A DNA stretch of 63,674 nt, counting the filler, from Vezdaea acicularis (lineage: Eukaryota), in the NCBI GenBank assembly GCA_026025075.1. It is 11 parts of 11 records of this genome, joined end to end, with 100 filler letters (N's around TTAATTAATTAA, not from the genome) between each part and the next. Parts side by side here need not be neighbours in the genome. Positions count along the whole stretch, not along the records: positions 24,916 to 30,812 come from JAPEUI010000292.1; 10 more parts are not named here. One strand, 5' to 3'. The first letter of the stretch is position 1; each line of letters opens with the position of its first letter. The notes below the pieces were generated by a model, which saw nothing but the letters and a program-made list of their open reading frames with translations, was not told the DNA's origin and did not search any database. The position numbers were made by a program, and so were the translations under genes. Shown in pieces: positions 26,475 through 27,900 of this stretch.

Positions 26475-26480
26475 TATAAA
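26475..26480 (+). promoter_or_regulatory. Putative TATA box of adh1
   Basis: TATAAA about 140 nt upstream of ATG 26619. Confidence 0.55.
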
Positions 26481-26618: not shown

Positions 26619-27900
26619 ATGGTTAACATTCCCAAGGATCAGATGGCTCAGGTCATCACGAAGACGGGAGGCCGTACATCCCCTTCCGCCCTGACTACTG
26701 TCCTCTTTGGTTAACAGCATGGGCAGCCATCGAATTTAAGAGAATACCCGTCCCAAAGCCGGCATCGGACGAGGTACTTGTCAACGTCAAGTTCAGCGGA
26801 GTCTGCCATACGTAAGATTGCACCCTAGCTATCAATGCTGAAGCCATTACCACTGACAGTCTGAACAGAGATCTGCACGCATGGATGGGTGACTGGCCTC
26901 TGGACACCAAAATGCCTCTCGTCGGCGGGCATGAGGGTGCGGGAGTAGTCGTCTCGAGGGGCGAACTTGTCAAGGATGTTCAGATCGGAGAGCATGTTGG
27001 GATCAAGGTCAGCTGACTTACCGCAAACTACCGAAGAGAAAATGTCCAACTGACTTTCTACGTGCAGTGGATCAATGGCAGCTGTCTCTCCTGTGACTTC
27101 TGTCAACAGGCGGACGAGCCTCTTTGTAGCAAGGCTACCATGTCTGGCTACACTGTTGACGGAACATTCCAACAGTACGCGGTAGCGAAAGCTGCACATG
27201 TAGCGCATCTCGACAAATCCATCCCGCTCGACAAGGTTGCCCCCATTCTCTGCGCTGGCATCACTGTATACAAGGGCTTGAAGGAGTCAGGTGCCCGGCC
27301 GGGCCAAACGGTCGCAATCGTCGGAGCCGGCGGGGGCTTAGGTTCCGTGGCCGTCCAATATGCCAAGGCCATGGGCCTAGAAGTCCTCGGAATCGACACT
27401 GGTGATGAGAAAAAGAAGCTATTCAAGAAGCTCGGAGGCACCACCTTCATCGACTTTGCCCAGTCAAAGGACCTCATCAAAGACGTCAAGGCTGCAACGC
27501 ACAACAACGAGGGGCCCCACGCCGTCCTCCTCGTTGCCGCAAACGAGAAGCCGTTCCAGCAGATAAGTACCCCGAGTCCTTTTTAGGTACGACCAGCCAA
27601 AAGCTAACAATGCAGCACGCAGCCGAGTACGTCCGCTCAAGAGGCACCGTTGTAGCAATGGGCCTCCCCGCCGACGCCTACCTCAAAGCCCCCGTCTTCG
27701 GCTCCGTCATCCGCATGGTCACCATCAAGGGCAGTTACGTCGGCAACCGCCGCGACACCGCCGAGGCCCTCGAGTTCTTCCAGCGTGGCCTCATCGAGTG
27801 CCCCATCAAGATCGTCGGCCTCAGCGAGCTGCCCATGGTTTATGAGAAGATGAAGGCTGGCGCGATCGCGGGGCGGTATGTCGTTGATACGAGCAAATAA
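26619..27900 (+). CDS. adh1: Zinc-type alcohol dehydrogenase 1
   Basis: [48 protein letters not shown]; three GT-AG introns plus a fourth, non-canonical one (about 27563-27618). Confidence 0.96.

Follow-up and report, generated by a model that had tools for sequence, protein, structure and literature searches.

A probable U2-type AT-AC intron at a displaced position in the adh1 gene of Vezdaea acicularis

The window analyzed here is a 63,674-nt stretch of Vezdaea acicularis DNA (GenBank assembly GCA_026025075.1), filler included, in which small contigs are joined by N runs; the assembly is metagenome-assembled, comprises 315 contigs (18.9 Mb), and may be incomplete. An adh1 gene lies on the plus strand of the window, on contig G000:C215, which is the single DNA match to this gene in the assembly. 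When spliced with an AT-AC fourth intron, five exons give a 351-aa protein with one terminal stop: exon 1 (26619–26673, with the ATG at 26619), exon 2 (26727–26811, containing GVCHT, the start of the catalytic Zn motif), exon 3 (26869–27007, with the GHEG motif), exon 4 (27068–27562, 165 codons, ending in KPFQQ with the last two codons CAG CAG), and exon 5 (27619–27900, AAEY to TSK and the stop). The first three introns are GT-AG introns of 53 nt (26674–26726, donor GTACAT), 57 nt (26812–26868), and 60 nt (27008–27067, between the codons for K and W), and intron 4 (27563–27618) is a 56-nt phase 0 intron. A TATAAA sequence is present at 26475–26480, 139–144 nt upstream of the start codon.

The predicted protein contains the GVCHTD, GHEG, structural-Zn, and GAGGGLG motifs as well as the ADH_N and ADH_zinc_N Pfam domains, and has the features of a fungal Zn-dependent Adh1 of the MDR family. 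A search made with its homologue P0011 found yeast ADHs as the nearest solved structures. Within the genome, the next-best Adh1 matches show 33–43% identity, and no other close copy was found.

The top protein match, P0001 (99% identity), is the deposited model of the same gene. It lacks 14 aa after intron 3, including the structural-Zn cysteines (window 27008–27109), because its intron 3 is overlong; taking the canonical AG at 27066–27067 as the intron end restores these residues. Since P0001 is wrong at intron 3, it carries little weight as an independent witness for the structure of intron 4. The position of intron 3 is common to 24 of the 39 orthologue loci that could be scored. The positions of introns 1 and 2 are rarely matched in metagenome loci (2/50 under a strict pattern, 1/41 of the scorable loci), suggesting frequent intron turnover in this gene.

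Intron 4 begins with ATAAGT and finishes with GCAGCAC. Three in-frame readings of the region were compared. Excision of 27563–27618 yields a 14-residue junction sequence containing QQAAEY and leaves the frame open to the stop; excision of 27567–27622 (GT..AG, also 56 nt, donor GTACCC) yields QQITEY; and excision of 27563–27615 (AT..AG, 53 nt) yields QQHAAEY. If the intron is retained, the unspliced frame reaches a TAG at 27584–27586 after seven extra residues. These coordinates, the three readings, the TAG, and the GCTAAC at 27603–27608 were all part of the original prediction, and each of them held when the sequence was read again.

Other structures were considered for this region. The sequence TTTTTAG/GTACGA (27580–27592) inside intron 4 looks like an acceptor directly followed by a donor. 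Its use in a recursive or twin intron was rejected: its pieces would be 20–41 nt, which is too short, and the in-frame TAG stays unless a 20–24-nt intron is excised. A donor at 27576 was rejected as well, as it gives a 3-residue insertion and scores -4.1 bits. A tandem-duplication origin was examined by eye; of 8 intron bases, only the last 6 agree with the end of the upstream exon, which is insufficient.

A count of AG/ATAAGT..CTRAC..AC across the genome gave 8 occurrences against 20 in a reversed control, and further counts of AT-AC motifs gave 148 against 152 and 78 against 86, with no excess over chance in any of them. The motif class being unenriched in the genome, the case for intron 4 rests on protein register: what distinguishes it from a chance match is the exact register of its ends with a conserved protein.

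To compare the readings at the protein level, we searched for homologues of Adh1 and obtained 1368 matches, 120 of which were listed. The residue after PFQQ is Ala in 119/119 of the other homologues listed, and Ile (as ITE) occurs only in P0001. Across 97 full-length homologues, 109 columns, position 259 included, do not vary; the AT-AC protein alters none of these columns, whereas the GT-AG reading 27567–27622 puts Ile into the invariant Ala column, its sole break among the 109. We also selected 150 diverse representatives, 118 of which covered the site; after removal of six gapped rows, the remaining 112 had A in 87, S in 14, G in 6, T in 2, L, V, and W in 1 each, and I in none. The spacing between PFQQ and Y[VIL]R is three residues in 117/117 of the listed homologues in which both motifs were matched. 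Whole-protein HMM scores separate the readings only slightly, with 676.0 bits for AT-AC, 672.5 for GT-AG, and 670.3 for AT-AG, and an HMM built on the diverse set gives the same order (456.1, 453.9, and 449.4 bits).

The main competitor is the canonical GT-AG intron at 27567–27622, shifted by 4 nt, with ATA as an exonic Ile codon and an enzyme that truly reads QQITEY as deposited in P0001. Its ends are canonical, it is in frame and equal in length, it lies just 3.5 bits behind in the whole-protein HMM, and Thr is frequent at the second of the two altered positions (ATE in 17/120 listed homologues). The lineage is also fast-evolving, and the Adh1 of the window alters 4 of 154 near-invariant columns and sits on a long branch (0.34) in the tree. 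Against this stand the Ile in a column that holds Ala in 119/119 homologues and no Ile in 112 diverse rows, and the error that the deposited model also contains at intron 3. The splice signals, examined below, weigh further against it.

As a comparison set for donor and branch sites, we used 77 distinct GT-AG introns from orthologous adh1 loci; these introns come from one gene family in other species, so that the scores are rough. Over positions +3 to +6, ATAAGT scores +5.0 bits and GTACCC -3.6 bits, the latter being below all 77 introns, 90% of which have G at +5. The AT site (CAG/ATAAGTA, 27560–27569) pairs with the U1 5' end at 8/11 positions, with a mismatch at +1, and the GT site pairs at 4/11. 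Weak donors do occur elsewhere, such as GTACAT and GTCAGC within the adh1 gene of the window and GTACCA in one orthologue intron.

The branch site GCTAAC (27603–27608) has its branch A at 27607. In 63 of the 73 comparison introns with a called branch site, the branch A lies 10–14 nt from the last base. The AC end (CAC, 27616–27618) is at 11 nt, the modal distance, whereas the upstream AG is at 8 nt (2/73) and the downstream AG at 15 nt (4/73). To use the downstream AG, the GT-AG intron has to pass over a CAG located 8 nt after the branch A, and the comparison set contains no intron that skips a YAG so placed; joining the GT donor to that CAG, at 27615, would leave a 49-nt intron and a frameshift. 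The same reading also makes the perfect TAAGT and the in-register AC coincidental, and a YAC at that offset is found in 1/50 orthologue introns. Taken together, we consider the GT-AG intron improbable.

The third reading joins the AT donor to the nearer AG at 27615, either as the sole product or together with the AC one, or supposes that step 1 often ends in release, as it does in Aspergillus telomerase RNA. The competing CAG (27613–27615), three bases upstream of the AC end, is the first YAG after the branch site and is in frame, CAR is kept in a second genotype (see below), and AT-AG introns exist among U12-type introns (PMC1557818). However, its extra His would be an insertion at a site where no homologue has one (the 3-residue spacing held in all 117 scorable of the 120 listed); it has the lowest HMM score, few introns end 8 nt after their branch A, and in the U2 system an A at +1 prevents step 2, as described for a telomerase RNA (PMC4299874). 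This reading is very improbable.

A region search revealed a sole candidate for a second genotype, P0121, from an ENA contig, whose exon part differs from the window at 2/165 residues. It reads KPFQQ-ISTP and then diverges, with a 16-residue stretch in place of the ISTP-SPF-stop of the window; the intron read-through contains three changes relative to the window. Another ENA sequence, P0136, is identical to the MQH-AAEY frame of the window and was taken to be from the same contig as P0121, the longest contig being 3547 nt for both. The second genotype, known as protein only, has thus retained A-T at +1/+2 and a terminal CA(Y) around a changed interior. The GT-AG model would preserve the Ile just as well, however, and the His could be encoded by CAT or by CAC. 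On intron retention, the second genotype stops at the same codon. The exon-4 pattern specific to this lineage matched no stretch in metagenome_contigs, where very near genomes may be missing.

These data bear on the suggestion that A at 27563 results from an assembly error, or that a GT intron has suffered a private damaging mutation there, the gene being mis-assembled or decaying. The gene does lie on a 5.9-kb contig of a metagenome-assembled genome, but an Ile codon, which requires A-T, likewise follows QQ in an independent contig of a different genotype. Even with G at +1, AC would remain in register, and the open reading frame is complete with its Zn and NAD motifs in the only close Adh1 copy found. 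Because the independent genotype keeps A at +1 and CA(Y), a base-call error at 27563, raised as an alternative in the original prediction, is unlikely, and we give this whole explanation hardly any probability.

We then asked which spliceosome could process intron 4. Neither the U12-type 5' site (ATATCC; RTATCC(T)) nor the U12-type branch site (CCTTRAY) is present in intron 4, whose donor hexamer and branch site are U2-type. Searches of the possibly incomplete 315-contig assembly with Rfam models identified U2 and U6 snRNA genes over the cut-offs and two U1 gene copies with canonical 5' ends (E about 1e-13, under Rfam's cut-off), but no match to U11 or U12 and no U6atac over the cut-off. The U1 genes, L005:1501–1645 (G000:C9) and L006 (G000:C247), are near-identical, and no variant suited to A at +1 was seen. 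The U6 gene (L007:1480–1532, G000:C284, plus strand) has an apparent 53-nt GT-AG intron with a CTAAT branch site 5' of the ACAGAGA box, and Rfam properly matches its 3' part only; U6 introns in fungi are already known.

The AT-AC ends would also fit a U12-type intron processed by remnants of a minor spliceosome, and the assembly may be incomplete. This account has to contend with the U2-type signals and with snRNAs of the major spliceosome that were found where those of the minor one were not; Ascomycota are also described as having no convincing minor introns (PMC10639083). It is extremely improbable. The comparison therefore agrees with the proposal that this is a major-spliceosome AT-AC intron, and the search for U11/U12 genes suggested along with that proposal came out on the same side.

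Considering protein register, splice signals and their presence in a second genotype, and snRNA inventory, we conclude that 27563–27618 is very likely the fourth intron of a working adh1 gene, a U2-type ('type II') AT-AC intron that would be removed by the major spliceosome, with a predicted mRNA junction of 27562/27619. By its testable features, it appears to belong to the U2-type AT-AC class. In a possible mechanism, U1 would pair with CAG/ATAAGTA around the +1 mismatch, G at +5 and T at +6 would suit the U6 ACAGAGA box, and U2 would take GCTAAC. After branching, A at +1 would lack the usual first-to-last G.G pair, so that the AG three bases earlier may be disfavored, and the AC, located 11 nt past the branch A, may dock through an A.C equivalent; both the AG block and the A.C docking are drawn from published work. 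The product would be normal Adh1 (QQAAEY). A lower splicing efficiency of intron 4 is plausible, and nothing was found in favor of the idea that the intron is possibly regulatory.

A second AT-AC intron was found in the same genome. We screened introns of about 40–80 nt after exon ends AG or GG, taking all sites of the 78 AG/AT matches and about 17 of the 70 GG/AT matches, the latter chosen by eye; 87 donor sites were examined and 32 passed an open-frame filter. Among these 32 candidates, only adh1 and a Fet3-like ferroxidase gene were recognizable as protein, as judged by eye. The Fet3-like intron (49 nt, G000:C46:46361–46409; L082:1503–1551, plus strand) has the same donor hexamer ATAAGT, ends in AC 10 nt beyond its branch A, and lies shortly upstream of the HCH copper motif. 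Joining its AT-AC ends restores ADNP-G-VWLFHCH; the exons on its two sides match residues 334–456 and 458–528 of yeast Fet3p, with the join supplying Gly457 (Pfam positions 110 and 112). The first AG is 45 nt beyond the AC, so no canonical alternative keeps this motif. AT-AC splicing by the major spliceosome therefore very probably takes place in V. acicularis.

To investigate the origin of intron 4, we analyzed 73 metagenome adh1 loci (50 distinct) with an intron between KPFQQ and YVR, identified by a pattern that allows the intron at any point between these motifs, in which some codons are fixed and the intron is 43–73 nt long, and which possibly does not cover the nearest genomes. In all 73, the intron is a GT-AG intron between the E and Y codons, after AA(E/D), ATE, or SAE, and none lies directly after QQ. 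Intron 4 thus sits 9 nt upstream of a widespread intron site, and this usual site (AAE/Y, between 27627 and 27628) is empty in the window. The 9-nt offset was absent from the earlier description of this intron. As for that description's call to look for the same intron in orthologues, none of the 73 loci, all distant, has an intron at the site, and its ends are kept, at the protein level, in one close genotype.

Deposited proteins of the nearest genera read QQAA normally. Among the 120 listed matches to the last exon, about 22 (by eye) show Q directly before YVRP via acceptor read-through, three read D-VRP, which corresponds to a site shifted by 1 nt, and P0136 is the only one with foreign sequence immediately upstream of AAEY. 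The read-through frames of P0196, P0205, and P0230 start with D-VRPRG, indicating that in some fungi the adh1 intron lies 1 nt into the Tyr codon. In a tree of 36 of the 50 distinct loci and 19 named proteins (one skipped), the window protein groups with Thelocarpon and Sclerophora at 87/92 (not starred, long branch), and the loci with the E/Y intron are spread among proteins of several classes.

Because all 73 loci have a GT-AG intron 9 nt downstream and none directly after QQ, intron 4 looks lineage-specific and does not look like the remnant of a U12 intron; a recent origin is possible. Its displaced position would be compatible with sliding, or with gain of intron 4 plus loss of the old intron. 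The paired changes of G to A and G to C at the two ends, as first suggested, are a reasonable reading, but no GT-AG version was found at this position. We tentatively propose a history that we regard as possible, though not yet as probable: a young U2-type AT-AC intron, born or moved in a lineage without minor spliceosome, 9 nt from a lost ancestral GT-AG intron, would have reached AT-AC from GT-AG in single steps via in-frame fallbacks. Such fallbacks might have been the CAG 3 nt upstream, which costs one additional His, and the 4-nt-shifted GT-AG intron, which costs two substitutions. The rival splice sites would then be leftover scaffolding, and may still give minor isoforms. The adh1 locus is small enough for a minigene test of whether tandem or shifted sites can bridge a double change.

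If intron 4 is what it appears to be, the deposited protein is probably wrong at the junction (Ile-Thr for Ala-Ala) in addition to lacking the 14 aa after intron 3, and gene finders restricted to GT-AG will repeat the junction error. AT-AC splice sites make up 0.019% of annotated fungal splice sites (PMC7072748), and likely U2-processed AT-AC introns were detected in Caenorhabditis elegans by automated alignment (PMC3033335). We found no published AT-AC intron for fungal adh1, multicopper oxidase, or Vezdaea in the open-licence literature. AT-AC II introns have been hypothesized in xylanase genes of filamentous fungi (as cited in PMC1557818); they belong to the same class as intron 4 and occur in the same kind of organism, but in a different gene. 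With these and the Fet3-like case, the rarity ascribed to intron 4 in the original prediction was overstated.

The closest parallel for the donor is the Aspergillus telomerase RNA, whose AUA(A/C)GU site includes the identical AUAAGU and undergoes step 1 in the major spliceosome (Kannan et al. 2015, PMC4299874). In the A. niger RNA, tested in Schizosaccharomyces pombe, step 1 proceeds and step 2 is blocked at AUAAGU, and A1G restores splicing, which suggests that AC is favored over the nearer AG in intron 4. There, the cleaved RNA is the product, whereas in intron 4 the in-register AC should let step 2 finish. Such pairing of ends has been studied in yeast suppression experiments and in the P-complex structure: 3' site recognition involves a non-Watson–Crick pair between the first and last intron bases, for which AU..AC appears tolerable with a modelled A.C pair (10.1101/212811), and a G-to-A change at +1 is rescued, less efficiently, by a G-to-C change at the last base (PMC1557818; first/last-nucleotide suppression, Parker and Siliciano 1993, as cited in later work). 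Intron 4 would share this tolerated +1/-1 A.C pair, but the published cases are engineered mutants and a modelled pair, whereas intron 4 would be a natural case.

Regarding position, the stwintron route described in Pezizomycotina (PMC5587772) also leads to discordant nearby intron positions among orthologues. It explains shifts of 1 nt, however, while the adh1 offset is 9 nt and introns of 56–65 nt are too short for two nested introns.

U2-type AT-AC introns as a class are already known, from human SCN4A/SCN5A and TAF2 and from 24 cases in five species (Sheth et al. 2006, PMC1557818). Intron 4 resembles them in its AT..AC ends, in a donor that is otherwise a strong U2-type site, and in being mis-modelled by a canonical shift. 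The class was called a relic by Sheth et al., and Lin et al. (PMC2831892) regard it as derived from U12-to-U2 conversion and trapped, since both ends would have to change at once for a switch. An ascomycete AT-AC intron whose site is lineage-specific points instead to an origin within the major-spliceosome system, and if the tentative history above is true, a young AT-AC intron would be a counter-example to the view of such introns as relics or U12 descendants. Members of the class, as described in these sources, are old and conserved, relics or U12-derived, whereas intron 4 is 56 nt long and has a site that is empty in 73/73 loci; what is particular to it is this displaced, lineage-specific position.
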